IMG/VR virus record: IMGVR_UViG_2731957577_000001
Coordinates: 64,001 to 128,000 of that record
Strand: one strand, 5' to 3'
DNA length: 64,000 bases
From: a virus
Taxonomy: Duplodnaviria; Caudoviricetes
The translations under genes and the position numbers were made by a program. Under the pieces are notes generated by a model, which searched no databases, was not told the origin of the DNA, and worked only from the letters and a program-made list of their open reading frames with translations. Numbering within the stretch: position 1 is the first letter of the stretch; each line of letters begins with the position of its first letter. Below are positions 1,506 through 56,155 of this stretch, in pieces.

Positions 1506-1534
1506 TTGAAGTGTATTACAACATCGTTTATACT
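1506..1534 (+). promoter_or_regulatory. SigA-type promoter with overlapping degenerate TGTAATGCATTACA operator (1507-1520)
   Basis: TTGAAG-17bp-TATACT; TGAAGTGTATTACA matches the palindrome at 11/14. Confidence 0.65.
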
Positions 1535-1648
1535 CAGGGTGCGAGTGCGTTCCTCCTTTTTGTCGTGGCACGAGGGAATGCCGTCTCCCTTGTGCAAGAA
1601 TCGCTCAAGGCAGCGGCGCTTGCAGAATGGAGACAAGAGGTGAATTCA

Positions 1649-2755
1649 GTGGAAGGCCTCAGCTTTGAAGAAGCCTTGCGGCAAGTACAATGGATGGAGC
1701 AACCCGCTCAACCCCAGGTGCAACAAGAGCCGTTCTCGACGGATGATATAAATCCTCATCGTTTGCGCGTAACCAATCCGGATGGGCTGCTCGGCCGGCC
1801 GCTGAATAAGATTGAGGCCATGATGCTTCAGAACATCGAAGCGGTGGATGAATACGCGTGGTCGCGCGGATCCCGAGGCGGTCTGGATACCGGATGGGAG
1901 CTGTTCAATGACGCCATCGAAGGCGGCTTACAGCCCGGTCTGATTCTCTTTGCCGCGGCACCGAACGTCGGGAAATCGGCCATGATGTTGCAGATTGCAA
2001 AGACAGTCTCAGAGCGAAACGAAAACGTCTATGTATCCTATCACTCACTGGACGACAGTAACAACGAGCTGCTTCCGCGCTACATCGCCTGCGACCAACA
2101 GATCAAGATCGCACAGGCCAAGATGCCTGAAAAGTTCTCGGATCAACCGGAGATCATTGAGAAACGCAACGAAGGGCTTCGGAATCTGTACCGAAACATC
2201 TACCGCTTTGGCATGTATGACTCCGAGAATCTAGGCACCAGTGTGGAAGCGATTGAACAACACATCAAGGACATCCTGATGGAGTTGCCAGAAGGCGTCA
2301 AACTCGTCATCTGCATCGACAGTTTCAATGACCTGACCGTGGAGTCACAGAAGTTTAGCAACAACGATGCGCGCAACGAGTATGTCGCCAAGATGCTCAA
2401 AAGCTGGACGGTTCGATACAACGCCGTCGTCATGTGTACGGCACACCTTCGGAAGACCAATGGCAAACGGCCAACGGTCGACGATCTCAAAGACACGATT
2501 CGACTTCAATACGAAGCCAACCTGATTCTCCTTTTGTACAACGAGGTCGGCATCAAAGAAGAGAATGCCGCGGTGTACTGGATGGATGAAGAAGAAGAGA
2601 CGAAGATGCCCGTCATCGAGTGCAAATTTGCGAAGAACAAGTTCAGTTCCTTTAAGGGAACGCGATTCTATGAGTTCTTCCCAGACTTCTCGTTCATGAT
2701 TGAAGCGCCCATCGAGGCGTGCCGAAGATACGCTTCGCTGATTTATCAAGGCTAG
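1649..2755 (+). CDS. dnaB: DnaB-like replicative helicase
   Basis: Walker A 'AAAPNVGKS', 'ICIDS', 'AHLRK...RPTVDDLKDT..LQYEAN', 'KNK'; GTG 1649 preceded by GAGGTG. Confidence 0.9.
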   Translation: MEGLSFEEALRQVQWMEQPAQPQVQQEPFSTDDINPHRLRVTNPDGLLGRPLNKIEAMMLQNIEAVDEYAWSRGSRGGLDTGWELFNDAIEGGLQPGLILFAAAPNVGKSAMMLQIAKTVSERNENVYVSYHSLDDSNNELLPRYIACDQQIKIAQAKMPEKFSDQPEIIEKRNEGLRNLYRNIYRFGMYDSENLGTSVEAIEQHIKDILMELPEGVKLVICIDSFNDLTVESQKFSNNDARNEYVAKMLKSWTVRYNAVVMCTAHLRKTNGKRPTVDDLKDTIRLQYEANLILLLYNEVGIKEENAAVYWMDEEEETKMPVIECKFAKNKFSSFKGTRFYEFFPDFSFMIEAPIEACRRYASLIYQG

Positions 2756-2766
2756 GAGGTGGTTTC

Positions 2767-3033
2767 ATGGAACTGCTAGACACCAAGAGTGCGCGGGTGG
2801 GATACATCCTTCAGACCTTTCCAGACGCGCGCAACAATGACAATCTGCTCTGCAAGCTCTATTGGGAACTCTTTGATGGCGCGACCGATTTGAATGACAT
2901 CATCTATGCGACGAAAGCCGAGGTCATTCGGCGCGCCCGACAGCTCTGGAATGCAAAAGGCATGTACATGCCCACCGACCAGAGAATCATCAACCGCCGG
3001 CTACGCGTCAAGCGGAGTCAGAAGACTACATAA
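2767..3033 (+). CDS. Phage hypothetical protein
   Basis: AGGAGG RBS; 'P.ARNND..L...YW...DG' and 'E.IRRARQ' patterns typical of small phage proteins. Confidence 0.6.
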   Translation: MELLDTKSARVGYILQTFPDARNNDNLLCKLYWELFDGATDLNDIIYATKAEVIRRARQLWNAKGMYMPTDQRIINRRLRVKRSQKTT

Positions 3034-6144: not shown

Positions 6145-6195
6145 TAATGTGCATTGCATCGAGGTGACTATATACGACGTGGAGGCAAAGGAGCA

Positions 6196-8400
6196 ATGAG
6201 TGTACAGCTACGTGGTTTCCATAGGAAACTCTTTCAGACTCGATATGCTCAAAAGAGCCTGGATAAAGAAAGGTACATTGTACCGGGCGCCGATGTTGTG
6301 ACGTTGATTCGGGATGGGAAGTACCCGGTGCGTGAGACCGCCACCGTTACCCGTGTAGACGGCGAGACCGTTCACATGATCCTCACCAGCGGCGATATGG
6401 TAGGCCAAGAATTCAGCCAGAACATCGCTCATGTGGATGCGCTGGTGGAAACAGAATGGGAGCATGCATCGGAGCGCGTTTCAACCGCTGTGGCCGGGGT
6501 AGAGAAACCCGAAGTCCGCAAGTCCCATCAGAAGAAGTTCCATCATGCCATATCAAACTTTTTATTGATCCCAGCCGGCCGCATCCTCTCTGGCGCCGGA
6601 GATGACTCCTTCGTCACTCTGTTCAACTGCTATGTGACGGCAATCAAGCCACCAAAAGGCCAAGAACGGTATGGTCGCGACAGCCGTCAAGCGATCTTTC
6701 ACACGATGGGCTTCATCACGGAAATCATGGCGCGCGGTGGCGGGAATGGAACCTGTCTATCGGTTCTGCGACCGAAGTATGCGACGTTGTCTCAAACCAA
6801 GGGCAAGTCAGCGGGCGCGGTGCATACCGGCAACATGATCAGCTCCCTCACAGACTGGGTGGAGCAAGCCAACCGTCGTGGGGCCCAGATGCTGACCTTG
6901 CACGACTGGCACCCCGATGTATTCTATACCGCCGATGAAAACGACTCTCTCTATAATGAGGACTTCATTGGTGCCAAGAATAAGCCAGGCTTCATGGAAG
7001 GCAACAATTCCTCCGTTTTGGTGTCCGATGCCTTTATGCATGCGGTCGAACATGATTTGAATTGGGATCTTGTATTTCCGGACACCACGCATCCCGCCTA
7101 CAACCTTGAGTGGGATGGAGACCTCAACAAATGGAAAGCCAAGGGCTATCCGGTCAAAGTCTATCGCACGATCCGCGCGCGAGACATGTGGAAGAAGATC
7201 ATCCACTGCAATTGGCGTTCCGCCGAACCCGGCATCATCTTCATTGACACTTGCAATCGGATGCACAATGGCTGGTACCTCGGCACGATTATGGCCACGA
7301 ACCCATGCGGCGAGCAGCCGATTCTCGATGGCTCGACCTGCAACTTGGGCGCCATCAACTGGGGTCGCATGATTAAGCCGGTTGGAGAAGACGAGCTGGG
7401 AACCATCTATGACGTCGATTGGGATCTGCTGAAAAAGACCGTATGGGCAGGTGTCCGGTTCCTGGATAACGTCATTGACGTCAGCTTTTATTGGGACAAG
7501 GACCTTGAGCGTTGGCAAAAGGGGGAACGCCGTGTCGGCCTTGGCGGCATGGGCATCGCAGACTTCCTCATTGCCATGCGGAAGCGGTATGGCTCCAAAG
7601 AAGGCAACGAACTCATCGAGAAGGTCATGCGGTTCATTCGTGACGAGGCATACCGTTGCTCGATTGAATTGGCCAAGGAGAAAGGGCCATTCCCGTTCTT
7701 TGATCGCGACAAGTATCTGGAGAGTGGCTTCGTCAAGACCCTCCCCGAAGACATCCAGCAAGCGATCTATGAGCATGGCATTCGCAATTTGACCTTGCTG
7801 ACCTTTGCGCCGACCGGTACGACTGGCAGTGTCACGCCGTCCCTGCTCGATCCCGAAGGATCCGTGTCCACGGGTTGCGAACCCCACTTCGCCATGAAAT
7901 ATCACCGGCTTTCGCGGGTGGGTTCGACCATTCAATATGCAGGTGTCGCAAAAACATGGATAGATGAACATCCAGGACAGGAGCTTCCAGAGTGGTTTGT
8001 GGGTGCAATGGATCTCACCCCGGAAGAACACGTGGGTGTCCAAGCCGCGCTCCAGAAGTACGTCGACAGCTCCATTTCTAAGACCGTCAACTGTCCGGCC
8101 GATTACACGGAAGAACAAGTGGCCGAGGTCTACATGCTGTTATACAAGTCCGGCTGCAAAGGCGGGACCATCTATCGGGACGGTTCCCGTTATGAACAGA
8201 TCCTCAGCCTCACGGATGAAGAGGAAGCACCGGAGACGGCGGAAGAAAAGGCCGGGGAGACCAATGAGATGCCGGCGGTTCAAGACAAATATGCCAATTG
8301 GGAGTGCGTCGGTTGCGGCAGCAAATCCTTCGTACTTGTTGAGAATTGCCCGCAATGCACGGAGTGTGGTCTACAAGTGTGTTCCATTGGAGGACATTGA
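6196..8400 (+). CDS. nrdJ: Class II (adenosylcobalamin-dependent) ribonucleotide reductase
   Basis: 'PAGRIL', 'LFNCYV', 'RRGAQM', 'AEPGIIF', catalytic 'TNPCGEQ', 'CNLGAIN', 'APTGT', 'SISKTVN', 'KGGTIYRDGSR'; C-terminal Zn ribbon; no R2 subunit nearby. Confidence 0.92.
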   Translation: MSVQLRGFHRKLFQTRYAQKSLDKERYIVPGADVVTLIRDGKYPVRETATVTRVDGETVHMILTSGDMVGQEFSQNIAHVDALVETEWEHASERVSTAVAGVEKPEVRKSHQKKFHHAISNFLLIPAGRILSGAGDDSFVTLFNCYVTAIKPPKGQERYGRDSRQAIFHTMGFITEIMARGGGNGTCLSVLRPKYATLSQTKGKSAGAVHTGNMISSLTDWVEQANRRGAQMLTLHDWHPDVFYTADENDSLYNEDFIGAKNKPGFMEGNNSSVLVSDAFMHAVEHDLNWDLVFPDTTHPAYNLEWDGDLNKWKAKGYPVKVYRTIRARDMWKKIIHCNWRSAEPGIIFIDTCNRMHNGWYLGTIMATNPCGEQPILDGSTCNLGAINWGRMIKPVGEDELGTIYDVDWDLLKKTVWAGVRFLDNVIDVSFYWDKDLERWQKGERRVGLGGMGIADFLIAMRKRYGSKEGNELIEKVMRFIRDEAYRCSIELAKEKGPFPFFDRDKYLESGFVKTLPEDIQQAIYEHGIRNLTLLTFAPTGTTGSVTPSLLDPEGSVSTGCEPHFAMKYHRLSRVGSTIQYAGVAKTWIDEHPGQELPEWFVGAMDLTPEEHVGVQAALQKYVDSSISKTVNCPADYTEEQVAEVYMLLYKSGCKGGTIYRDGSRYEQILSLTDEEEAPETAEEKAGETNEMPAVQDKYANWECVGCGSKSFVLVENCPQCTECGLQVCSIGGH

Positions 8401-15730: not shown

Positions 15731-16051
15731 ATGAGCATGGTATTCGTCGATGTCGGTTTCAGCAACTTTATGGACGCGAGCAAGATCATTACGATCAGCC
15801 GGCCGGATTCGAGCCCGATCCGCCGGTTAGTCGGCCACGCCAAGGACAACAATCGGTACATCGACCTGACGCAAGGGAAGAAGACCCGTTCGATCATCGT
15901 GAGTGCCGGCGAACAAGGTCTGGTTGTCACCGCTTCTGCGGTCCAGACTTCCACGATTATCGGGCGGATTCGCAAGGCGTTCGAAGACTTGTTTGTCTCC
16001 CGCTTGGATCCCGCTGGCTTGGCGGTGATTGGAGAAGGTGGGTCCGAGTAA
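15731..16051 (+). CDS. remA: RemA (DUF370) extracellular-matrix regulator homologue
   Basis: 'VGFSN...SKII.I..PDSSPIRRL...AK.....IDLTQGKKTRSII......SAVQ..TI..R' follows the B. subtilis RemA pattern. Confidence 0.85.
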   Translation: MSMVFVDVGFSNFMDASKIITISRPDSSPIRRLVGHAKDNNRYIDLTQGKKTRSIIVSAGEQGLVVTASAVQTSTIIGRIRKAFEDLFVSRLDPAGLAVIGEGGSE

Positions 16052-16076
16052 TCCCCAACAAAGGAGCGATGGACGC

Positions 16077-19000
16077 ATGTGCAACCTGGTTCACCTGCAC
16101 GTTCACTCCGAGTTTAGTGAGTTGGACGGGCTCTCCAAGGTGCAAGACCTGGTGGCGCGTGCGAAAGAGATCGGGAGTACCGCCCTGGCCCTAACAGATC
16201 ATGGCGTCATGGGTGGTATTCCCGATTTTATCACCGCATGCGAACAAGCAGGAATCAAACCCATCCCGGGCGTCGAAGCGTATATGACGCGCAACCGGCT
16301 GCTCAAGGGCGAGTTTCTCAAGGAACGCCGGCTGGAGTTGTGCGAGAAATACAAGATCAAGGAGAAGGTCCTCAAGACCTTTATCCGCACCATCGAAAAG
16401 CAGCCGGCCAGCTTCATGGATGAAGCGACGGAACTACTCAAGGACTATCTCATGGCTCCGCCATCGGGCGACCTCTTTCATCTGACGTCGGGCGAGCTAT
16501 CCAAAGACGACGTTCTGAAAGAATTCCATCGGGAGGTCTATGACTATCTCTCGTATGACAACTATCACATCGTCCTGCTGGCGATGAACAATCAAGGGTT
16601 GGAGGATTTGTATGCCATCATCAGCGACGCTCATCTTCATGGATTCTATAGCGATCCTCGCACTGATCTTGCTTTTATTCGCGATCATGGGCTCGGGAAG
16701 AATCTCATTGCGACTTCGGCGTGCCTCGGCTCTTGGTTCGCTCGGCTGTGCCTTGCTGGGCTTATTGATGACGCTGTTGCTTTTATAGAAGAGTGCAAGG
16801 AGACGTTTCATGCGTTTTACCTGGAGAAACAAGCGACCCATCTGCCAGAGCAGATTCAGCTCAACCAGATCATCGACGATTTAGCGGCGCGGACAAACAC
16901 ACCGAAGATCATCACAACCGATGCGCATTATGCCCGCCAAGAGGACATCGACACGCATGACATCCTCATCTCGGTCAACTTCGGCAAGTGCGTCTTGGAT
17001 CCAGATCGCCTCCGTTACGCACCGGAATTCTGGATGAAATCCGAAGAGGAAGTGCGCAGCATTTGCGACGATGAGGAAGCCATTCTCAATACGAAGCGCA
17101 TTGCCGAGATGGTCAATGTCGCGCTTCCGAAGGAGCCGCTATTTCCAAAGTTCATTGTCGAAGAGGGAGACAGCCCGGAAGAGATTTTACGCAAGACAGC
17201 CTGGGATGCGCTGTTCCACTACGTCATCAAGAAGCCAGTGGACCTCGAGCGCTACTGTCAGCAGCTGGCCTATGAACTTGATGTCATTACAAGTCTTGGC
17301 TTTGCCGACTACTTTCTTGTGGTTTCGGACTACATACGCTGGGCGAAACAAAATGGGTATGAAGTCGGGCCTGGACGCGGGTCGGCCGCGGGTTCTCTGG
17401 TCGCATTCATGCTCGACATTACGACACTTGACCCCATCAAAAACAACCTGATGTTCGAGCGGTTCTTGAACCCCGAAAGAGCGGGGTATCCGGACATAGA
17501 TGCAGATTTCAGCTATGAGGCCGCCAAAGCGGTTCAACAGTATCTTAAAGACAAGTATGGCCAGGATCGGGTTGCACAGATTGGCACCTACGGCACCTTC
17601 GCCGCGCGGAAGGTCTGTCGTGCAGTGGGGAAGGCCCTTGGGTATAGCGATCAGGATCAGGACAAGTTTGCCAAGGCCATTCCGGCCAGACCCAACATCA
17701 CCCTCGAGGAAGCCTACAACGAAGAGCCGTTGGTCCAGGCCTACGCTCGCCAGCATCCTGACTGGTGGAACGCCATGAAGAAACTCGAAGGACACATCAG
17801 TCATCATGGTGTGCATGCTGGAGGCGTCGTCCTTTCTCCAGTCCCGTTAACGAAAGTGGTACCGCTTCGTCTGGATAGCGAAGGCCTTGCGACCACGCAA
17901 TACGATATGGAGTGGATTGAGAAGTTCCTGGTCAAGTTCGACATCTTGAAACTCGATACGCTGGATCTCATCAAGTACACCATGCAATACGCGGGCATCT
18001 ATGGGAAAGTCGATCTGAATGAAATTGATCTCAATGACCCGAAGGTGTACGAGGAGATCTACAACAAGCTGAATTTGGCCGGCATCTTTCAGTGCGAGTC
18101 GAAACTTTACCATGACATCATCTCCGCGATGAAGCCGAACTGCTTTGAGGATATCTCGGTCATCGTGGCGCTCGGCCGCCCAGGACCATTGGACCTCATC
18201 CCGGACTACATCGATCGGAAGTGGGGCCGAAAGAAAGTCGAGTACCCATTGCCTGAACTGGAGCCGATTCTCAAAGACACCTATGGAGTCTGGGTGTATC
18301 AAGAACAAATGATGCAGGCCAGCGTCATTCTCGGCGGACTCACACGCGGTCAGTCCGACATGATCCGAAAGGGTGTCGCCAAGAAAAAGCATGACCTCAT
18401 GCACAAGTGGATCGACCTGATGATCTACGGGTCTGAGCGGTACAAAGAGATGCGCCGCGAACACAATGCCATCGTCAATGCGATGAAAGCACGCGGGGAA
18501 GAGGTCCCGAAAGAGATGATGGACAAATACGATCCAGACCTGGATAAGGTTCCGTATGTGGAAGGTGCCATCAACCGGGGTTTTGATGAAGCCACCTTGC
18601 TCAAGATCAAAGAGGACTGGATCAAGTTCGGTAACTACTGCTTCAACCGCGCACACTCGGCTGCATACGCCAAGTTGTCGGTTCAAACGGCATGGCTCAA
18701 GACGTACTATCCTGTCGAGTTCATGGCGGCACTCCTGACCATTGCTGGTGACAAGAAGGCCAAGGATGGCACGCCAAAGACGGTCCTGTATATGCAGGAA
18801 TGCGAGAAGATGGGCATCAAGATTCTGCCGCCGGATATCAATGAATCCAACGCATCTTGGACACCCGTTGTCCATCCGGAAACGTACCAGAATCACCTCA
18901 AGGTCCACGTGGATCTGGGAACGAAGCCGGAAGAAGTGCAACTCAAGCCCGATGCCATTCGCTTTGGTCTGGGCGCCATTGCAGGGATCTCCAAAGAATC

Positions 19001-19547
19001 GGTCGATGAGATCATCAAATATCGTCCGTATACCTCGGTCGATGATGTCGTCGAACGGGTCAGCAGCCGCAAGATCAACAAGAGCAAGATTGTGGCTTTG
19101 ATCAAATCGGGCGCCTTTGACTCGATCAACCCAAACCGAAATCTCTTATGGCGCAATTACATCAAGAGTCGCGGGGAGGACTACGAGGCGATTCCAGCCC
19201 GCACCACCAAGAAAGACATCATGAGCTATGAGCGGGAGTATCTTGGCACCCTCATTACCGTACAGACCCGCTGGGACACGATTCCCAACGGGAAGGAAGA
19301 CGTACAGATCACGGGCTATGTCCTGAAGGTTGAGCCCTTTACGGCCAAGAAAACCGGTAAAGAACATTGCCGAGTCCTCGTGGAGACGCAAGAGGACGAG
19401 CGAAATGTCCTCGTATTCGGGACCAAATGGCAGCAACATAAAGGCCGCTTGGCACCCGGGCTGAAGGTCATTATCAAAGGCAAGAAGTCTGGCGAGGACC
19501 TTTTGGCAGATTCCATTCACTATGTCATGGCTGGGGTGAGCGCATGA
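16077..19547 (+). CDS. dnaE: DNA polymerase III alpha subunit
   Basis: PHP 'HLHVHSEFS.LDG', 'TDHG'; 'GPGRGSAAGS', 'FERFLNPER..YPDIDADF', 'KFDIL', 'FNRAHSAAY'. Confidence 0.95.
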   Translation: MCNLVHLHVHSEFSELDGLSKVQDLVARAKEIGSTALALTDHGVMGGIPDFITACEQAGIKPIPGVEAYMTRNRLLKGEFLKERRLELCEKYKIKEKVLKTFIRTIEKQPASFMDEATELLKDYLMAPPSGDLFHLTSGELSKDDVLKEFHREVYDYLSYDNYHIVLLAMNNQGLEDLYAIISDAHLHGFYSDPRTDLAFIRDHGLGKNLIATSACLGSWFARLCLAGLIDDAVAFIEECKETFHAFYLEKQATHLPEQIQLNQIIDDLAARTNTPKIITTDAHYARQEDIDTHDILISVNFGKCVLDPDRLRYAPEFWMKSEEEVRSICDDEEAILNTKRIAEMVNVALPKEPLFPKFIVEEGDSPEEILRKTAWDALFHYVIKKPVDLERYCQQLAYELDVITSLGFADYFLVVSDYIRWAKQNGYEVGPGRGSAAGSLVAFMLDITTLDPIKNNLMFERFLNPERAGYPDIDADFSYEAAKAVQQYLKDKYGQDRVAQIGTYGTFAARKVCRAVGKALGYSDQDQDKFAKAIPARPNITLEEAYNEEPLVQAYARQHPDWWNAMKKLEGHISHHGVHAGGVVLSPVPLTKVVPLRLDSEGLATTQYDMEWIEKFLVKFDILKLDTLDLIKYTMQYAGIYGKVDLNEIDLNDPKVYEEIYNKLNLAGIFQCESKLYHDIISAMKPNCFEDISVIVALGRPGPLDLIPDYIDRKWGRKKVEYPLPELEPILKDTYGVWVYQEQMMQASVILGGLTRGQSDMIRKGVAKKKHDLMHKWIDLMIYGSERYKEMRREHNAIVNAMKARGEEVPKEMMDKYDPDLDKVPYVEGAINRGFDEATLLKIKEDWIKFGNYCFNRAHSAAYAKLSVQTAWLKTYYPVEFMAALLTIAGDKKAKDGTPKTVLYMQECEKMGIKILPPDINESNASWTPVVHPETYQNHLKVHVDLGTKPEEVQLKPDAIRFGLGAIAGISKESVDEIIKYRPYTSVDDVVERVSSRKINKSKIVALIKSGAFDSINPNRNLLWRNYIKSRGEDYEAIPARTTKKDIMSYEREYLGTLITVQTRWDTIPNGKEDVQITGYVLKVEPFTAKKTGKEHCRVLVETQEDERNVLVFGTKWQQHKGRLAPGLKVIIKGKKSGEDLLADSIHYVMAGVSA

Positions 19548-30331: not shown

Positions 30332-30452
30332 ATTCTTATTATAGTCAATGTGCGTCTCATGTAACAACATGCTGAAACGAATCCAAAGGTCAATGAACTT
30401 ACTCTCCCAGAGGTCGACCTCTCTAAAAAGCATGATTCATAAAATCATGATT

Positions 30453-31067
30453 CTATGAAATCGCTTCTCCCTCCCGCTCGGGATGCGGACGCAGATCTAC
30501 CTGGGGCGGCTCCTGTGCCTTGCAGTAGAGTTCAATCGGCATGCCCTGGCTCAGCCACTGCGTGAGCTCTTCGATATAGCGGCCGCGCTCAATATATTGT
30601 GCCGCCTGTTTTCGGATCGCAGCTCTGGCCAGTTCTTCTGTCTCCCCAAATGCCTTAAACAAGCAATTCCCGTTAGGTAGCCGCAGCATATAGACGTCGC
30701 CTTTTGGCCACTCGTCGATGGCAATGGCATCATGCCAGCCTTCGTGATAGGCGGCTTGGACAAACTTCAGAGTTCGTAGGCCACTCAAAATCTGCTCTGG
30801 GGTACTTCCCCAATGGGTTTGGAGCTTTTTCAGAAGCTGAGAAGCCCATTGAAAATGAGTATACCGATCCGCCTGGACTTCCGCATGGAACCCATACCAC
30901 TCGTCATACTCCGGGTCCGTTTGCCATTCAAACCGTACTCTATAGTCCGAATACCCTTTGTGTTCCCGGACGACAACCGACAAGTGTTCGTACCGATTAC
31001 CATAGGAATGGCTCGGCGGCAGACGATAAATCAAGAAGTATTTATTGGGACGACGAATCTGCGTCAT
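30453..31067 (-). CDS. Hypothetical protein
   Basis: AAAGGA RBS; 204 aa. Confidence 0.65.
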   Translation of the reverse strand: MTQIRRPNKYFLIYRLPPSHSYGNRYEHLSVVVREHKGYSDYRVRFEWQTDPEYDEWYGFHAEVQADRYTHFQWASQLLKKLQTHWGSTPEQILSGLRTLKFVQAAYHEGWHDAIAIDEWPKGDVYMLRLPNGNCLFKAFGETEELARAAIRKQAAQYIERGRYIEELTQWLSQGMPIELYCKAQEPPQVDLRPHPEREGEAIS

Positions 31068-31089
31068 GAAGGATCATCCTTTCTTGGCA

Positions 31090-31154
31090 TAAAAGGAAGA
31101 CCCCTGTGATTGACTCACAGGGGTCTTGCGCTAAACGGAACTATGAAGTTTGTC
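31090..31154 (-). ncRNA. Putative ~65-nt sRNA complementary to the leader of the rep-like gene
   Basis: Minus-strand TTGTCA-18bp-TATTAT promoter (31190-31161, TG extension); 13-bp terminator stem 31097-31127; carries the complement of 31257-31272. Confidence 0.6.
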
Positions 31155-31369
31155 ACCGACATAATAGCATAGAAGTCATAGCTATGACAACTGAAAAATA
31201 TCGACTTGGTTCGGCAGGAAATCTTTTCGCCTTAGCGAATATATGCTATGATTCTGTTGCGCTAAACGGAACAGGATGCCTGTACCCTATACAGGTTATC
31301 TACGTCTGTTTTGGCGCACCCATTAACGGTGCGCCTCGATTTTTATAGAGAAAGGAGTGCGGGGATCGA

Positions 31370-31996
31370 GTGCTCGACCACAAAGACACGGGCAAGTATA
31401 CATACTGGATGAAGCACTTTGAGAACGGAGAACTGATCGAGGTCCCTGAGTCGAAGATAGAAAACATCTCCCTTGACACGCTCGACAACGGACCGGTCAT
31501 CCCCTTGCATCAGGGTGGATTCGCACAGATCCCTGCCTATTGGCTCTACTTCTGGTGTCCCTTTCTCTCGGTTCACGCTCAGTCTATATTTACGCACTTG
31601 ATCGCCCATACATACATAGACAAGAACTGGTGCCAGATCAAGCGTGAAACGCTCGCTGCAGAATGCAACATGAGCCTGTCCGCCTTCAACAAACACTTCG
31701 AGCAACTTGAACGATACAAGCTGGCTTGGCGCATCGAGGTGAGAACCCCGGATGGAAGCAACCTGCCGAACATTTACATCACGAGGAGGCAAATGCCCCT
31801 CATCCCGCAGGAACTTTACGATCAATTATCGGACCGGCTCAAGGACATGCATGATCAGTACATCGAGCGCATGGCCAAAAGCGGCATGCTGTACCTGGAT
31901 GTGGAGTATGAACGTCCACTTCCCGAACCCAGCCCACCGCCGAAAAGACGCGGCAGACCAAAAGGCTCAAAGAACAAACCCAAGGCGTCTGAATAG
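31370..31996 (+). CDS. wHTH replication initiator-like protein
   Basis: 'IFTHLI.H......CQIKRETLAAECNMS......HF.QL....L...E.R..DG.NLPNIY.I' resembles HTH_36-type Rep N-termini; AAAGGAG RBS; own terminator. Confidence 0.6.
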   Translation: MLDHKDTGKYTYWMKHFENGELIEVPESKIENISLDTLDNGPVIPLHQGGFAQIPAYWLYFWCPFLSVHAQSIFTHLIAHTYIDKNWCQIKRETLAAECNMSLSAFNKHFEQLERYKLAWRIEVRTPDGSNLPNIYITRRQMPLIPQELYDQLSDRLKDMHDQYIERMAKSGMLYLDVEYERPLPEPSPPPKRRGRPKGSKNKPKASE

Positions 31997-32041
31997 GCGC
32001 CTTTTTTTATGCCCAGAAAAACACCTTCCACGAGAAAAAAT

Positions 32042-32277
32042 ACCCCCTCCGTAATACGGACCCTCTATTTTTTCTGGTGTAACCCGTATCTCTTCTGGAG
32101 GAACCCCTATTCCGTATCACATAAGGTCCATTTCACCGTGCGGAAGGTAGATTCTTTCTCACAGACGGTGGAATCCGTGAAACGGAAGCATTGGTTCCTT
32201 GATGCGGAAGGGCACATTCCACCACAAAGAAACCCACCTTCCGTCACAAGGAAAGCAGGCTTACATACGGCGGAGAC
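32042..32277. repeat. Degenerate ~21-22-bp periodic array (iteron-like, candidate origin)
   Basis: About 11 units with recurring TTCC..../....CGGAAG cores directly downstream of the rep-like gene. Confidence 0.5.
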
Positions 32278-32330
32278 AAAAGAATAGATCTTTGAATCAG
32301 ATCCAATAAACAATTCTCCTCCTACTCCTA

Positions 32331-34612: not shown

Positions 34613-35971
34613 TTATGCGTTCGTTTCGCCTTCAACCGCTTCAGATTCGCCCGAACCGTTCTCCTGCGCCTGTTCCGCCGCGGCAGCTACATCCTCGGCA
34701 AACGGGTCTACTTCGGCTTCCGGTGGATTGAAGTCCTCGATCACGACACTATCCTTCATGTACGTGGTACGGATCGGGGTCACCAAGTCCAGATCCGACG
34801 AGCTGGTACCGGACACCCGAATCACAAACGGCGTCTTCGGAGACGTGAAGCAAAGCACAACCTGTTCCTCCGGAGAGATGGCGCCAAGCATGTCGAGGAG
34901 ATACGCAACGTTAAAGCTCGTTCCGATGTCCTTGCCCTCGGAAGACAGAGGCCGAATGTCTTCCTGGAACTTGCCATACTGGGTCGGATCGGACAGGAAC
35001 CGAACTTGGCCGTTCTTCGCGTCGACCAAGATATGAGCTGTTGTCACGCCCACATCATTCGCATACAAGGTCGCGCGACTCAGCAACTCCCTCAGCTCGC
35101 CGGCGCGAAACTGAATCTTAGTGCTGAAGTCAGGTGGAATGATCCGGTCGGTATCCGGGTATTGATCGTGCAACGTGCGAGTATAGATCGTGGTGTCGTC
35201 CAACTCATACAACACATAGCTCTTATCGAACCGGATTGTCACCATATCAACGTCCTTCAGGTGTTTCACTACTTCGTTAATGGAATCGGCCGGAATCACA
35301 TGGTTGCCATCCTCCACCTCACCGGTCAGTTGATACGACTGCTGCGCAAGACGGTGAGAATCGCATCCAATGGTCCGGAATATGCCGTCCTTGACGATGT
35401 GGTTCACGCCCGTCAGAACCGGCCGCGTCTCCGATTTGGATGTCGCATAGACAGTGCGGCGATACATCGTTGCCAGAACCGCGGACGGAACGGAGAACGA
35501 TAGCTGTCCATTGACCGACGGCAGCTTGGGATACTGGTCAAGGTGCAGACCCGCCAGAGACATCTTGGCGCCCTTGAACTTGATGAGCGTCTGAAGTTTG
35601 TTGAACTCGATGGTCACATGCTTTCCAGTAACACGGTTCACCAGGTCGACGAACTTACGACCCGGGAAGATAAGGCCGCCACCCTCTCCCTGAACGCGGA
35701 ACGACTCCATATCCGTGATGACGGTCTTCGTATAGAAGTTGCTGTTTCCGCCGATCAGCGTGATCTTGTTGTCCTCAACCTGAAAGTAAATGCCCTGGAG
35801 CGCCTGGGAGGGCGAGTTCTTTGACACCGAGTTTCCGACCTTACGAACCGCCTCACGTAACACTTCGCTCTTGATGGTCAGTGTGAACACCTGATTGGTC
35901 GTAAAGACCTGCTTCTCGGCCTCCTTCTCCAGTTCAACCGCCTTCTTCAGGTCAGCTTCTGCAAGCGCCAT
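34613..35971 (-). CDS. dnaN: DNA polymerase III beta sliding clamp
   Basis: 'L.GIY', 'YP.LP', 'ETRPVLTGV', 'DSHRLA', 'YPD..RIIP', 'FNV.YLLD', 'P.R'; acidic extensions. Confidence 0.92.
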   Translation of the reverse strand: MALAEADLKKAVELEKEAEKQVFTTNQVFTLTIKSEVLREAVRKVGNSVSKNSPSQALQGIYFQVEDNKITLIGGNSNFYTKTVITDMESFRVQGEGGGLIFPGRKFVDLVNRVTGKHVTIEFNKLQTLIKFKGAKMSLAGLHLDQYPKLPSVNGQLSFSVPSAVLATMYRRTVYATSKSETRPVLTGVNHIVKDGIFRTIGCDSHRLAQQSYQLTGEVEDGNHVIPADSINEVVKHLKDVDMVTIRFDKSYVLYELDDTTIYTRTLHDQYPDTDRIIPPDFSTKIQFRAGELRELLSRATLYANDVGVTTAHILVDAKNGQVRFLSDPTQYGKFQEDIRPLSSEGKDIGTSFNVAYLLDMLGAISPEEQVVLCFTSPKTPFVIRVSGTSSSDLDLVTPIRTTYMKDSVVIEDFNPPEAEVDPFAEDVAAAAEQAQENGSGESEAVEGETNA

Positions 35972-45543: not shown

Positions 45544-46935
45544 TCAGCCTGCAATCAAATGACGCTGGTTGTGCTTGTACGTATCCACCCGCGCCTTGAT
45601 CGACTCATAGCTCACCTCAAAGAGTTCGGATGCTTGCCGGATGTATATGTCCAGTTCAACCGGATCTTCAACCTGGCTCAGAACCTCGATGACTTTTCGC
45701 ATCCGTTCTTGTTGCAATTGTGCAATCTCGGATTGATGATAAAAGATCTGGTCATAGGTCTCACGATGAATCCGTTCCAACCGCCACTGACTTATGGTAC
45801 GCCGATGCTTCTCCATCCAGCGAAGCAGCTGATCAGGTTCATCTTCGAAGTTGTCACAAAGATCACAGGGATCTAGACCCTCTGGCATTGGGATGATAAA
45901 CGTCTGGATACCGTGAGACGTCAGCATCTTGGCATCCCGCTCGATGGCCTTCATGCCGGCTTCATCCCCATCTCGCATCGAGACGACCCGCTTCGCGCCG
46001 GCGCGCACCAAGAGTTTCGTCTGGGCTTCGGTGAGCGCGGTTCCCATCGTGCAGACGGCATTCTGGACACCATATTTGTGGAGCTTGATGACATCCGTCC
46101 AGCCCTCGACAATCACAGCTTCGCCCCACTGGCGAATGAACTCTTTTGCGATGTGCATGCCAAAGAGGTGATTGCCCTTGTCAAACTCCGGATACGGATG
46201 GTCCTTGTAATACGGGTCATCCGGCTTGATAGAGATTCGGTCCAGATACTTCACAATCGGCATCTTGCCTTCGGCCTGCAGTTTCTTGTTCGCCTCGGCC
46301 AACACGTTGGGAGGAAGCATCGTCCGGCCGGTAAAGCTGATGATGTTCCCGTGAAAGTCAAACAGGGTAAAGACGATGCGATCCTTGGTATTCCGAAAAT
46401 CATAGTCCACGTCATCACCAAAGCCGAGCTTCCAAAGCAAAATGTCTTGCATCGTGAACCCGCGCTGATAGAGGTATGCCAGAGCCTCTTTGTTGTTCAT
46501 GAGGTTCTGTTGAAACCGCTCAGCAGCTCGCTCACAATACTCAATCCACTTGGCGCGAAGATCCTGTTTTCGCTTGGCTTCAGGATCCAGAACCGGCAGT
46601 GGCTCACCTAGGAAGTTGGCCAACCACTCAATCGCTTCGCCAAGATTGCATCGTAAAATGCCCTTCAAGAAACCATACACATCACAAGACTGAACGGTGC
46701 TATGGTTTCTGGAACCAGCGCCACAGGCATAACAGCCAAAGGTCTGTTTGTCCGTCCGAACATGGAAACTCGGATTCTTTTCTTCATGAAACGGACAACA
46801 CGCCACATAGTCGCGGCCCATCTTCTTCAGCGGCACAAACTGAGAGATGACCGCCACAATGTCGGCCTTCGACTTCAGATACTCCTTGAATTCATCTGGA
46901 TAGTACGGCACATCGACCCTCCTCTCCTTGATCAA
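45544..46935 (-). CDS. dnaG: DnaG-type DNA primase
   Basis: CHC2 'CPFHEEKNPSF...C..CG', 'F.GR', 'KYL', TOPRIM 'VEG..DV', 'DGDEAG', 'DP.D'. Confidence 0.92.
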   Translation of the reverse strand: MIKERRVDVPYYPDEFKEYLKSKADIVAVISQFVPLKKMGRDYVACCPFHEEKNPSFHVRTDKQTFGCYACGAGSRNHSTVQSCDVYGFLKGILRCNLGEAIEWLANFLGEPLPVLDPEAKRKQDLRAKWIEYCERAAERFQQNLMNNKEALAYLYQRGFTMQDILLWKLGFGDDVDYDFRNTKDRIVFTLFDFHGNIISFTGRTMLPPNVLAEANKKLQAEGKMPIVKYLDRISIKPDDPYYKDHPYPEFDKGNHLFGMHIAKEFIRQWGEAVIVEGWTDVIKLHKYGVQNAVCTMGTALTEAQTKLLVRAGAKRVVSMRDGDEAGMKAIERDAKMLTSHGIQTFIIPMPEGLDPCDLCDNFEDEPDQLLRWMEKHRRTISQWRLERIHRETYDQIFYHQSEIAQLQQERMRKVIEVLSQVEDPVELDIYIRQASELFEVSYESIKARVDTYKHNQRHLIAG

Positions 46936-51796: not shown

Positions 51797-53746
51797 TCAA
51801 GATAGCTTCACTTTTTGCAGAATTTCTTCGGGAAGTTCGTCCAAGAACCGAGATGGCTTGACAGAAATCAGGCCGCGAGGCCCTTGCCGCATCGTAGTGT
51901 ATGTCAAGAAAAGACGTTTTTCTGCTCGGGTAATGCCGACATACGCAAGCCGACGTTCTTCCTCCAACTCATGCGCTTCCTTGCTACGCCAAGACGGAAA
52001 GACGCCTTCATTCATGCCGATGATAAAGACCACCGGAAACTCCAGGCCTTTACTGGAGTGCATGGTCATCAGCCGTACCGCGTTTTGGCCCTTTTCCTCC
52101 ACATCCGTGAGCAGCGAGATTTCCTGCAGAAAGTCTCCGAGTGTCTTGTCTGGATGGTCTTCTTGATACTGATGTACCAGTCGAAGAAACTCCTCCAGGT
52201 TATCCAGCTTGTCCTGGGCTTCTTTATTCTTGGTGTTCTGCCACATGGCCACGTAGCCCGTCTTATCTAAGACATACTTCACGAACTTCTCGAGATCGCG
52301 AGTCTGGTGGGCGCGCAGATCTTCCAGCAAAGACAAGAACACTTTTACCTTACCGTTGGTCGCTTTCTTGATCTGTTTGATGTCGTCAATGCTCCGCAAC
52401 GCCCGATGAATGCTGACTTTGTAGTCATTGGCGTACTTAATGATATGTTCTTCAGACGACTTCCCTATGCCGCGCGCGGGCTTATTCAGAATGCGAAGCA
52501 TCGCGGCATCATCCTTGGGGTTATGGATCACGCGAAGATACGAAACCGTGTCCTTGATCTCCTCCCGTTCAAAGAACGCAGACCCACCCACGACCTTATA
52601 CGGAATGAAGTTCGGCACAAAGAGTTGCTCTAGGGCCAGAGATTGTGCATTGTTCCGGTAGAGCACGGCGAAGTCTGACCACGCATACCCTTCTTCCATG
52701 ACCATCTTCTTGATCTTTGAAGCCACGTATGCCGATTCCTTGCGCTCATCGGACAGCTCGATGACCTGGATGGCATGGCCGCCTTTCTTGTCCGTGAAGA
52801 GGTTCTTCTCTTTCTGGTTTGGATTGTGTTTCATGATCATGTTTCCGGCATGGACAATGACCTCGGTGGACCGGTAGTTCTGGTCCAGATAAATCGTCGT
52901 GCAAGGGAAGAACTTGCGCTCGAAGGACAGAATGTTCGAGATGTCGGATCCGCGGAAACCATAGATGGACTGATAGTCATCGCCCACGACAAATAGATTG
53001 TTCTGTGGCCAAGCCAGGTACGACAGAAGCATGAACTGCGCATGATTGACGTCCTGATACTCGTCCGCAAAGACGAACTTAAAACGGTTCTGCCAATACT
53101 CGCGGGCACCTGGAAAGTCGTTCAGGATCTGAACGGTGTTCATGATAAGGTCGCCAAAATCCATCGCATTGGCTTCCTTCATGAACTCTTGATACTTGGC
53201 ATAGACCTGGGCCATGACCTCATATGTGGGCGAATCCGCGAGATTATACAGACACCAATCGGGAGTATGCAGAAGGTTCTTGGCTTGATCAATGTAATGC
53301 AATGCCAGACCTTCTTTATAGTCCTCCTCAATGCCCATCATCTTGTAGATGCGTTCAAGAAGTTTGAGCTGGTCGCTAGTGTCATAGATGACAAAATTGC
53401 GTTCATAGCCGAGAAGATGTGCGTATTTGCGGAGAATGCGGACACAAAGGGAGTGAAAGGTCCCCATCCAGATTTGCGCCGCCTTCTCTTCACCGATCAC
53501 CTTCGTGATGCGCTCTTTCATCTCGCGCGCGGCCTTGTTGGTGAAGGTGGCGACAAACATCTCACTGGGCTGAACGCCATGATTCGCAATCATGTTGGCG
53601 ATGCGAACGGTCATCGTGCGCGTCTTACCCGAACCGGCGCCAGCCAACACGAGGACGGGCCCATAAATCGTTTCGGCCGCCTGCCGTTGATTCGGATTGA
53701 GTTCGGACAGCATCTGCTCAATTGGGGTGGTTGTTATTGTGGTCAT
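51797..53746 (-). CDS. pcrA: PcrA/UvrD SF1 helicase
   Basis: 'LNPNQ', 'AGAGSGKT', 'TFTNKAA', 'DEYQD', 'VGDDYQSIYGFRG', 'NYRS', 'H.SKGLEF', 'EERRLAYVGITRA'. Confidence 0.95.
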   Translation of the reverse strand: MTTITTTPIEQMLSELNPNQRQAAETIYGPVLVLAGAGSGKTRTMTVRIANMIANHGVQPSEMFVATFTNKAAREMKERITKVIGEEKAAQIWMGTFHSLCVRILRKYAHLLGYERNFVIYDTSDQLKLLERIYKMMGIEEDYKEGLALHYIDQAKNLLHTPDWCLYNLADSPTYEVMAQVYAKYQEFMKEANAMDFGDLIMNTVQILNDFPGAREYWQNRFKFVFADEYQDVNHAQFMLLSYLAWPQNNLFVVGDDYQSIYGFRGSDISNILSFERKFFPCTTIYLDQNYRSTEVIVHAGNMIMKHNPNQKEKNLFTDKKGGHAIQVIELSDERKESAYVASKIKKMVMEEGYAWSDFAVLYRNNAQSLALEQLFVPNFIPYKVVGGSAFFEREEIKDTVSYLRVIHNPKDDAAMLRILNKPARGIGKSSEEHIIKYANDYKVSIHRALRSIDDIKQIKKATNGKVKVFLSLLEDLRAHQTRDLEKFVKYVLDKTGYVAMWQNTKNKEAQDKLDNLEEFLRLVHQYQEDHPDKTLGDFLQEISLLTDVEEKGQNAVRLMTMHSSKGLEFPVVFIIGMNEGVFPSWRSKEAHELEEERRLAYVGITRAEKRLFLTYTTMRQGPRGLISVKPSRFLDELPEEILQKVKLS

Positions 53747-54565: not shown

Positions 54566-56092
54566 TCATCGTCTCTTGGCGAGGGAAATCAGGGTCGGGT
54601 GAACCTCAAGCAACTGTTGATACAACGACTCAAAGGTCTCGCGAATATCCCACTGCGCTTGTTCGCTCGTGCGCAGATTGATGAGATGATACGCTTCCCA
54701 CAAGTTAAAGTGGGCCACGATTCTGCGCCGATGACAGTTGAGAACGCAATACTCGCGATAGCCGAGCTCTAATATATCGTATAGGGCTTTGGCTTTCTCT
54801 GCGACCTCATAGACGATATCCTCAAGTCCTGCTTCCTGAATGCGCGGTGGTACGGTAATGCCAAGGTTTGCGCTCGGCCGGCTGAACACAAAGTTCGTTT
54901 TCCGGTTGTGACGAAGCAGCTGGTGCCAACTGGCTTCCGAAATCAGCAGTTCCGCTTGGTAATCCACCTGCTTGAACATCTCGGGCGGAACATCATGCGT
55001 CCCCATTTCCCACAAGAGATCTTGGATGGACTCAACCAGATACGATTCACTCATCGTCCGCGCGCGGGCCAGCGCCTCCCGGAATCGAAGGCCCTGCTCC
55101 TGAACCAGGACTTGCGCGATGATGTTCACCATTGCGTGACGTTCCGAAGGTGCCTTCTGAAGGCCCACGTAACTTACTTCGGGAAAATCGGGGAAGTATT
55201 CCGTCGTAAACCGATGTTTGATCCGTGCCTTACTCTTCGCCATATATTCAGAAGGCTCGGCATGCTTGAGCAGTGTCGGCAAGATCTTGGAGATCTCCTG
55301 CTTGAGATTGTCGGCGAGCTGATGAACCTCGGCAAAGTCTGAGTTGTACAGTTTGACAATGCCATCTCGCCAGGCGCGGCCGTTGGCTGTCATGCCAAGA
55401 TTCGTGAACATGGCCAGTGGCAACACGTAGCGCGCGTCTTCAAAGGCGAGCTTACGCAAAGCGACATCTCGCTTGGTTGATTCGCTAAGACTTGCCGGCA
55501 ACAGTGCGTCCTTGTCTTTGTCCTTCAGATGGTTGTACACGCCCTCAATCAACTGTTCAAAGGCGTCGTAGCACTCGTTCATCAGCAATTCAAAGCGCTC
55601 GTGGCGCGGATCGTCTTTCGGAATCGGGTTGTACCAGTCGCCGCGCTTTGGCTGCTGATACCGCTGGCTGTACTCGGTGATCGAGAGAAACTCATTCGAG
55701 AGTTCCAATTCGGCCGAAGCGAGTCGAGACACCTTTTCAATTCCCACATGCGCTACGGCGTGTTCGGCCACGGAACTGTGCCCGTAATTCACGGTCCATT
55801 TTTCATGGAACTGGGCAGCTCGCTCGGACAAAGGCTTGAGATCCAGTGTCCGTCCATCGACTTCAACATGCCCCTTCTCCAGGGCTTCACGGAGGAGTTC
55901 CTTAAAGGACTTGGGGCTTCGAGAAACCCATGCAAACAAAACCGCAACGAATTCTTCGGGCAAGTTGGTTACGCCATAGACATTCCCATCCAGATTCGTG
56001 ATGAACGGAGATAAGTCCACGGCTTCACGGGGCTTTTCCGTCGGCCGGGAAGCTCGGCTCTTGTTCTTCTTTTGCTCCTGGGTGTGTGCCAA
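54566..56092 (-). CDS. thyX: Flavin-dependent thymidylate synthase, tandem-domain ThyX
   Basis: 'YGH.SVAEH', 'E.SQRY', 'EDARYVLP', second repeat 'QLLRHNR', 'LR....AQWDIR'. Confidence 0.88.
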   Translation of the reverse strand: MAHTQEQKKNKSRASRPTEKPREAVDLSPFITNLDGNVYGVTNLPEEFVAVLFAWVSRSPKSFKELLREALEKGHVEVDGRTLDLKPLSERAAQFHEKWTVNYGHSSVAEHAVAHVGIEKVSRLASAELELSNEFLSITEYSQRYQQPKRGDWYNPIPKDDPRHERFELLMNECYDAFEQLIEGVYNHLKDKDKDALLPASLSESTKRDVALRKLAFEDARYVLPLAMFTNLGMTANGRAWRDGIVKLYNSDFAEVHQLADNLKQEISKILPTLLKHAEPSEYMAKSKARIKHRFTTEYFPDFPEVSYVGLQKAPSERHAMVNIIAQVLVQEQGLRFREALARARTMSESYLVESIQDLLWEMGTHDVPPEMFKQVDYQAELLISEASWHQLLRHNRKTNFVFSRPSANLGITVPPRIQEAGLEDIVYEVAEKAKALYDILELGYREYCVLNCHRRRIVAHFNLWEAYHLINLRTSEQAQWDIRETFESLYQQLLEVHPTLISLAKRR

Positions 56093-56155
56093 CCATCGCA
56101 CCTCCAAAAAGATGAGGAGAACGTCTGTCCTCCTCATTGGGTCTCAGTCTGCTCT

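Follow-up and report, generated by a model that had tools for sequence, protein, structure and literature searches.

A rep-like gene is preceded here by two identical copies of a 16-nt word, one at the 5' end of its predicted leader and the other inside a small transcription unit predicted on the opposite strand. This arrangement raises the question of whether an RNA encoded next to rep, and not across it, could decide if transcription of the leader continues into the gene. We addressed it in a window of 64,000 nucleotides, that is bases 64001-128000 of a 198-kb contig belonging to a 3.6-Mb genome of the family Alicyclobacillaceae.

A plasmid-type replicon on a large phage-like element

Around the rep region are encoded a DnaB-like helicase, a ribonucleotide reductase (RNR), DnaE, DnaN, a primase, UvrD, ThyX, UDG and SRAP (Table 1), and a borderline capsid match was found on the same contig at 180.6 kb. 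These replisome genes and the borderline capsid match place the rep region on a large element of phage-like, possibly phage-plasmid, nature. The replisome and nucleotide-metabolism genes lie beside a plasmid-type rep/iteron replicon, so that two replication systems are present on one element. By DNA similarity, the region 30400-32100 had no match in phage and plasmid collections.

The first-pass annotation of this DNA, made from the sequence alone, had called the gene rep-like, and this name is supported. Its product matches phrog_26369 (annotated replication initiation protein) at 1e-22, and no Pfam match was found at E ≤ 0.01. By using a profile made from the window Rep and two Alicyclobacillus relatives, we collected 372 protein clusters, mostly of 320-400 aa. 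A profile built from the window Rep recovers proteins with PF13730, of which pBS72 RepA is a homologue. Homologues of Rep include RepA of the B. subtilis plasmid pBS72 (the replicon of the pHT01 vector), the annotated initiator of Brevibacillus phage Jenst, which adjoins a partition gene, and the initiators of Bacillus and Paenibacillus plasmids of 140-260 kb. All seven longer relatives that we sampled (323-405 aa) contain a DnaA N-terminal domain, and several also HTH_36. The window Rep, with its 208 aa, ends before the DnaA_N domain and is without a C-terminal DnaA N-terminal-like domain; the two Alicyclobacillus relatives are likewise short (188-197 aa). The window Rep appears to be the N-terminal DNA-binding part only of pBS72 RepA-like initiators (HTH_36 + DnaA_N). 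Close relatives of it were not found with back-translated patterns in genome, viral and metagenome contigs, a word-index protein search returned its own protein alone, and a search of 400 other Bacillota genomes gave one weak match only.

The initiator gene is followed by a terminator and then by a 21/22-bp iteron array, and 21-bp arrays also follow rep in both Alicyclobacillus relatives (L011 and L012). Given the homology of Rep and the array that follows, the region looks like a complete plasmid-type replicon. The unit of these arrays, whose period is 21/22 bp, differs per element: TTCCGTnnnACGGAA in the window, TGTACAnnnTGTWCA in L011 (3636-3760) and GNCGAAAAWW... in L012 (3614-3740).

Two predicted divergent units share a 16-nt word

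The 16-mer TTGCGCTAAACGGAAC occurs twice on the plus strand with 0 mismatches, and these are the only two exact copies in the whole 3.6-Mb genome, both at this locus; within the window, no third copy was found even when up to 3 mismatches were allowed. As the flanking bases differ, the length of the repeat is exactly 16 nt. We call this word the seed, or the address where its proposed role is meant.

Promoters and terminators were assigned as consensus matches (Table 1). On the minus strand, they delimit a predicted sRNA composed of a ~13-nt A/U-rich 5' tail, the 16-nt complement of the seed, a terminator hairpin and a U tail, with a predicted fold of -25.1 kcal/mol (z = -5.0 versus shuffles). 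Seed copy 1 abuts the stem of this terminator with a 2-nt overlap, and the T-run is present on the minus strand only. On the plus strand, the predicted rep leader is ~86 nt long (fold z = -4.9 versus shuffles), and its terminator with the T-run lies 5 nt before the rep RBS. The sRNA unit (31088-31154) and the leader (31257-31345) do not overlap, and their promoters are divergent.

The first-pass annotation had described most of this layout, and its description was accurate: the two copies of the 16-mer lie exactly where it had placed them and form a unique pair in the genome; the divergent terminated unit of ~65 nt around copy 1 does have an extended -10 promoter and a 13-pair terminator, and its predicted transcript carries the exact complement of the 16-mer; copy 2 begins at the predicted +1 of rep, 4 nt after the extended -10; and the palindrome overlapping the sRNA -35 is an exact one of 14 bp. 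The palindrome is a candidate operator, and the inter-promoter regions of five relatives contain no counterpart of it between the promoters. An inverted repeat, TTCGC-N4-GCGAA (31226-31239), also covers the weak rep -35 and the spacer.

Searches against Rfam gave no match for the window at the gathering score, only noise for 31000-31420 (E = 0.14 and 0.45), and nothing for six relatives at E ≤ 0.1.

Table 1. Position, strand and predicted nature of the features of the window.
Feature	Position	Strand	Detail
DnaB-like helicase	1511-2755		
RNR	6154-8400		
DnaE	16029-19547		
Orphan ORF, 204 aa	30453-31067	-	From the ORF list; starts 20 nt past the sRNA terminator tail
Predicted sRNA, ~65 nt	31088-31154	-	Promoter and terminator scan
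Predicted sRNA intrinsic terminator	31097-31127	-	13 pairs, then CCTTTTATGC
Seed copy 1	31126-31141	-	Predicted to be transcribed as the complement, GTTCCGTTTAGCGCAA
Predicted sRNA promoter	31161-31190	-	TTGTCA, 18-nt spacer, TG-extended TATTAT; 10/12 consensus matches
Palindrome GTCATAGCTATGAC	31175-31188		Perfect, 14 bp; overlaps the sRNA -35
Predicted rep promoter	31224-31252	+	Weak -35 TTTTCG, 17-nt spacer, extended -10 TGCTATGAT at 31244-31252
Seed copy 2	31257-31272	+	5' end of the predicted rep leader; starts 4 nt after the -10
Central leader hairpin	31274-31301	+	From the fold; between seed and anti-seed
Anti-seed TCTGTTTTGGCGC	31305-31317	+	Predicted to pair with the seed; overlaps the terminator left arm at 31313-31317
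Predicted leader terminator (attenuator)	31313-31345	+	GGCGCACC/GGTGCGCC, then TCGATTTTTA
rep-like gene, 208 aa	31370-31996	+	GTG start; RBS GAAAGGAG at 31350-31357
Predicted rep terminator	31982-32003	+	Terminator scan
Iteron-like array, probable iteron origin	32026-32282		~12 degenerate 21/22-bp units, TTCCGT-N3-ACGGAA
DnaN	34613-35971		
Primase	45544-46935		
UvrD	51797-53746		
ThyX	54566-56137		

The layout recurs at other rep loci with different seeds

We compared the DNA upstream of rep at 27 distinct loci of the pBS72 RepA-like family. The module, i.e. the divergent sRNA unit and the leader sharing a seed, was found at 11 of them, window included, with seven unrelated seeds of 8-16 nt (Table 2), those of the Paenibacillus plasmids being short (only ~8 nt). 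For each seed, the copies match one another and are complementary to their own terminator arm. At all module loci, copy 1 is separated by 0-5 nt from a G+C-rich hairpin with a T-run on the minus strand, and is found 10-16 nt past the start predicted from a minus-strand TTGnnn-17/18-TGnTAnnnT promoter. The first base of copy 2 comes 3-7 nt after the rep -10, the spacing between copies is 119-140 nt, and an intrinsic terminator is found 90-120 nt into the leader. The rep -10 is TGnTAnnnT in every module relative except L036 (GGTTATAAT, no TG), and the U tails of the sRNA hairpins are poor in L023 and L024. The sequence elements and their complementarity are conserved while the sequence itself changes from locus to locus. 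The first-pass annotation had read the locus as a non-overlapping antisense sRNA with an attenuator, and had named covariation of the two copies in relatives as a check on this idea. Both the layout and the covariation are found at ten other rep loci, where the seeds are different and the two copies and the anti-seed still match. That the seeds might be members of a larger repeat family is ruled out, a third copy being absent at every locus.

Table 2. The 11 loci with the module and their seeds (two forms are given where the copies differ).
Locus	Source	Seed
Window	This element	16 nt
L011	A. macrosporangiidus (Alicyclobacillus contig)	GACCAAT[T/C]GCGCGG
L013	Metagenome contig	GCGCATAATAGTTACA, exact in both copies
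L015	Metagenome contig	TGCGATTAACACG, exact in both copies
L023	Metagenome contig	GTAGACGACGCTC / GCAGACGATGCTC
L024	Metagenome contig	CCAGAATACCGT / CCAGGATACCGT
L033	Paenibacillus plasmid	GCGTGCA
L036	Paenibacillus plasmid	TGCGTGCT
L037	B. thuringiensis plasmid pd	TGCGATTACAY
L038	Paenibacillus plasmid (L043 is a near-identical record)	TACGTGCA
L042	B. cereus pG9842_140	TGCGATTACAY

The two plasmids with the same seed, L037 and L042, are 90% identical over the module, and the ~150 bp with both promoters differ at one position. Two compensatory pair changes separate them in the sRNA terminator stem and two more in the central leader hairpin. Such changes point to selection on the RNA structure of the sRNA stem and of the leader hairpin.

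Next to the sRNA unit of the window, the 204-aa ORF could be assigned to no family of Pfam or PHROG, and a structural comparison gave no usable neighbour. Because it lies behind the sRNA terminator, it would be reachable only via read-through from the sRNA promoter or from a promoter further upstream. Another possibility is that regulation is reversed or goes both ways: the attenuated rep leader, being abundant, would pair with the nascent minus-strand transcript beside its terminator and modulate read-through into the divergent gene, or would sponge the sRNA. At two loci, the window and L015, the sRNA terminator is indeed followed after ~20 nt by a gene that has an RBS of its own, with no promoter in between. 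However, among the five module loci at which gene orientation was determined, a co-directional gene directly behind this terminator is seen only at these two, and the left-hand neighbour is convergent in L011, L013 and L024. The sRNA unit is therefore a free-standing small transcription unit at the latter three loci, and is not simply the leader of the 204-aa gene. Moreover, the complement of the seed shares no more than 0-2 nt with the stem of the sRNA terminator, on which pairing would thus have hardly any effect. We give very little credence to such a reversed or two-way regulation.

At a twelfth locus, A. tolerans L012, the leader is kept without a matching sRNA or minus-strand terminator. 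The module looks degenerate there, and the leader can thus persist without the sRNA. In the DNA upstream of rep, the module is absent from phage Jenst, pTHECO01, Geobacillus pGspE55-1 and pBS72/pHT01, from the P. urinalis, P. lautus and Paenibacillus sp. Cedars plasmids, from the B. velezensis and B. licheniformis plasmids, and from nine metagenome contigs representing seven distinct loci. Iteron arrays lie upstream of rep in several loci without the module (L019 of phage Jenst at 960-1100, L021, L034, L035, L044 and L045); their units are of the GGTGAAAA type in Jenst and TGTCACAAAA..AGGAGT, in both orientations, in the Thermobacillus and Paenibacillus plasmids. This distribution suggests that one Rep family may use two alternative control modules, either the sRNA module or upstream iterons.

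Two additional elements were noticed in the same comparisons. First, most pBS72-family relatives, including pBS72/pHT01, have a second conserved RNA-like element just upstream of rep, of which there is none in the window. In this element, an A-run precedes a long hairpin with GGCGACC, GGCCGCC or GCGGCCAAAC in the loop (L033 ~945-1010, L034 ~905-975, L036 ~890-950, L038 ~880-945, L039 ~860-905, L040 ~870-960, L041 ~975-1055, L031 ~1295-1360, L032 ~1335-1385 and L014 ~1660-1765). Second, L011 (~2865-2990) and L012 (~2855-3000) have an extra ~100 nt between attenuator and rep, with a short ORF. This segment includes a covarying hairpin (GACCC/GGGTC versus GAGCC/GGCTC) and a conserved peptide-like stretch, MI(F/L)xKxxYHxGVLxST, whose L011 copy is out of frame with rep.

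The seed is predicted to compete for the left arm of the leader terminator

To represent the nascent state, leaders were folded up to the 3' arm of their own terminator. In the window, 13 of the 16 seed nucleotides then pair with 31305-31318, six pairs being formed with the left arm, in agreement with the pairing between seed and 31305-31317 that had been proposed from the sequence alone. The native seed gives -28.8 kcal/mol versus -18.9 +/- 2.3 for shuffled seeds (p = 0.004). In all 12 leaders, L012 included, the predicted partner of the seed is a stretch whose end falls within the left arm of the terminator. Compared to 500 shuffled seeds, native seeds stabilise the nascent fold by 6-10 kcal/mol in the seven non-plasmid leaders (p = 0.002-0.024 each); for the five plasmid leaders, an energy as low as the native one is attained by 0-30 of 300 shuffled seeds. 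A cruder measure, the count of pairs between seed and arm, was weak per locus (p = 0.11-0.26, not significant, in 5 of 7 loci), and the energy measure was used in its place.

Also, we calculated how the seed affects the terminator at equilibrium. Masking the seed in silico, to imitate a bound sRNA, raised the probability of the terminator from 0.34 to 0.87 in L013, from 0.01 to 1.00 in L015 and from 0.13 to 0.99 in L024. At four loci (the window, L011, L012 and L023), the terminator is favoured with or without masking (in the window, 0.99 without and 1.00 with it), so that control there would have to be kinetic and co-transcriptional. The window terminator hairpin (31313-31335) has 8 pairs, 7 of them G-C, in the terminator scan, and only 5-6 of its 8 left-arm nucleotides are taken up by the anti-terminator. 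In the full-length window leader at equilibrium, the terminator and the lower seed helix (AAACGGA/UCUGUUU) coexist, and the GCGC-GGCGC part of the seed helix alone competes with the terminator.

Then, we predicted duplexes between the leader and the single-stranded 5' part of the sRNA, since predictions with the whole molecules ignore intramolecular structure and are uninformative. These duplexes start at leader position 1-2 and reach -14 to -29 kcal/mol across loci, energies attained by 0-5 of 300 shuffles. For the window the value is -29.0 kcal/mol with 16/16 nt complementary, and none of 300 shuffles reaches it.

The same duplexes would also apply if the sRNA bound the leader and acted mainly post-transcriptionally, through cleavage by RNase III/RNase J or a change in leader stability or translation, with no induced termination. 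Given that the terminator is already favoured at equilibrium in 4 of the 7 non-plasmid leaders, termination may occur constitutively and in only part of the transcripts. Translation is indeed the step on which many antisense RNAs of Gram-positive plasmids act, as does RNAII of pMV158. This very small RNA is made of a single-stranded 5' tail and a terminator hairpin, and its tail contacts the rep mRNA, as proposed for the module; unlike the module sRNA, it is cis-encoded and overlapping, and inhibits repB translation rather than causing termination. However, the seed lies 80-100 nt upstream of the RBS, with no contact with it, and a pure stability mechanism leaves the conserved complementarity between seed and terminator arm unexplained. 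A mainly post-transcriptional action strikes us as quite improbable.

We also considered that the repeated words could be DNA operators or iteron-like sites, by which a protein (Rep or a Cop-like repressor) represses both divergent promoters, the terminators being ordinary and unconnected. Operators are classically found where copy 2 is located, at +1 of the rep promoter; iteron replicons typically contain direct repeats, and relatives without the module have iteron arrays upstream of rep. In addition, the window seed fits TTCCGT-N3-ACGGAA with 2 mismatches of the 12 specified positions, and scores 7.6 bits on the matrix of the 12 iteron units (rank 68 of 63,986, top 0.1% of window 15-mers). 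However, this score is below those of all 12 iteron units and of ~55 other window positions, the iterons after rep in L011 and L012 do not resemble the seeds, and the seed has no third copy at any locus. Likewise, a DNA site needs neither complementarity to the terminator arm, present in 12 of 12 leaders, nor a position within 0-5 nt of a hairpin with an opposite-strand T-run. As these conserved features are RNA-level ones, a DNA role cannot explain them, and we consider it unlikely that the words serve as protein-binding sites in place of RNA pairing. For the window itself, a DNA-level role of the seed is possible, and its address may additionally mimic a Rep iteron half-site, coupling RNA and protein control.

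A model for the control of rep by a divergent sRNA

We favour, with a probability of roughly 0.7, countertranscript-driven attenuation of rep by a non-overlapping, divergently transcribed sRNA, following the pT181/pIP501 logic. According to this model, two back-to-back promoters would fire divergently, and both RNAs would be made. The left promoter would give the ~65-nt sRNA, whose single-stranded 5' part is the exact complement of the 16-nt address and precedes the terminator hairpin, and the right promoter would give the rep mRNA, with the address as its first 16 nt. In the nascent leader, the address would pair with 31305-31317 and tie up the left arm of the 31313-31335 hairpin, allowing read-through into rep. 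With many copies of the element, the sRNA would be abundant and bind the address first; once the address is occupied, the left arm would be free, the terminator would form and transcription would stop ~25 nt before the rep RBS. Such kinetic competition, ending in termination in vivo, would set the level of Rep and thereby the copy number, and the outcome would be negative feedback on a plasmid-type replication initiator.

Comparison with known antisense systems

Countertranscript-driven attenuation of rep is known from pT181 (RNAI/RNAII) and from the Inc18 plasmids pIP501 (RNAIII), pAMbeta1 and pSM19035. In these plasmids, as proposed here, the 5' leader of the rep mRNA is bound by a small RNA (constitutively made in the plasmids), and this pairing blocks a pre-emptor helix so that an intrinsic terminator forms before the rep RBS, resulting in negative feedback on copy number (PMC4981023, PMC5703833). 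In silico, the window leader is of the same type: its pre-emptor helix and its terminator helix are mutually exclusive, and the predicted target is the 5' strand of the former. The 11 other leaders are so too. In contrast, the RNA of these known plasmids comes from the opposite strand of the leader itself and is fully complementary to it, whereas the sRNA gene of the module is located ~130 bp upstream, is divergent and does not overlap. Only the 8-16-nt address is shared, and pairing would take place between single-stranded 5' regions and not between loops. The Rep proteins also differ, that of the module belonging to the HTH_36 family of the pBS72 RepA type. In pIP501, convergent transcription is part of the circuit and is relieved by CopR (PMC4981023). 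Since the regulator is here a neighbouring divergent gene, interference by convergent transcription of the pIP501 type cannot occur.

Two other systems share part of this design. First, in the immunity of the phage-plasmid P4, seqB of the CI RNA pairs with seqA and seqC. CI resembles the module sRNA in being a short RNA that is not cis-antisense and causes premature termination of replication genes via short duplicated complementary words (PMC4825925, citing Sabbattini 1995, Briani 2000). It differs from the module sRNA in being processed from a same-strand transcript under its own control, the words being inverted repeats. The P4 system also uses another kind of termination sites, is gamma-proteobacterial and has an unrelated replication protein. 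Second, in the par locus of pAD1 (RNA I/RNA II, Fst toxin-antitoxin), complementarity arises, as in the module, from direct repeats (DRa, DRb) transcribed in opposite directions (PMC7472228). Unlike in the module, the promoters are convergent, the terminator is shared and bidirectional, and the RNA blocks translation of a toxin, with no attenuation of rep.

In the literature that we searched, whose coverage leaves out most subscription journals, we found no description of a trans-encoded or non-overlapping rep countertranscript. In the examples known to us and in those that we checked, antisense control of plasmid replication relies on a cis-encoded overlapping RNA, which makes convergent transcription inherent in these circuits (PMC4981023). 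The combination of features in the module appears widespread but undescribed.

A conserved divergent regulator gene with a short shared address would indicate that attenuation control can be built in trans. At even odds, in our view, the large plasmids and phage-plasmid-like elements of Bacillota contain a replicon family in which an address of 8-16 nt, free to evolve, sets the copy number and probably also incompatibility, and is kept in register in the sRNA, the 5' end of the leader and the terminator arm. The module is as such a candidate incompatibility determinant for a widespread family that includes large plasmids of the Bacillus cereus group and of Paenibacillus as well as phage-like elements. 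As the module is present in culturable hosts, for example on pG9842_140, the model is directly testable. If it is true, the module would be a natural, modular and orthogonal trans-acting attenuator and a natural template for orthogonal RNA-controlled terminators; given that the sRNA gene is separate from its target, the address could be rewritten without touching the promoters. In principle, an element could then silence any other one with an identical address.
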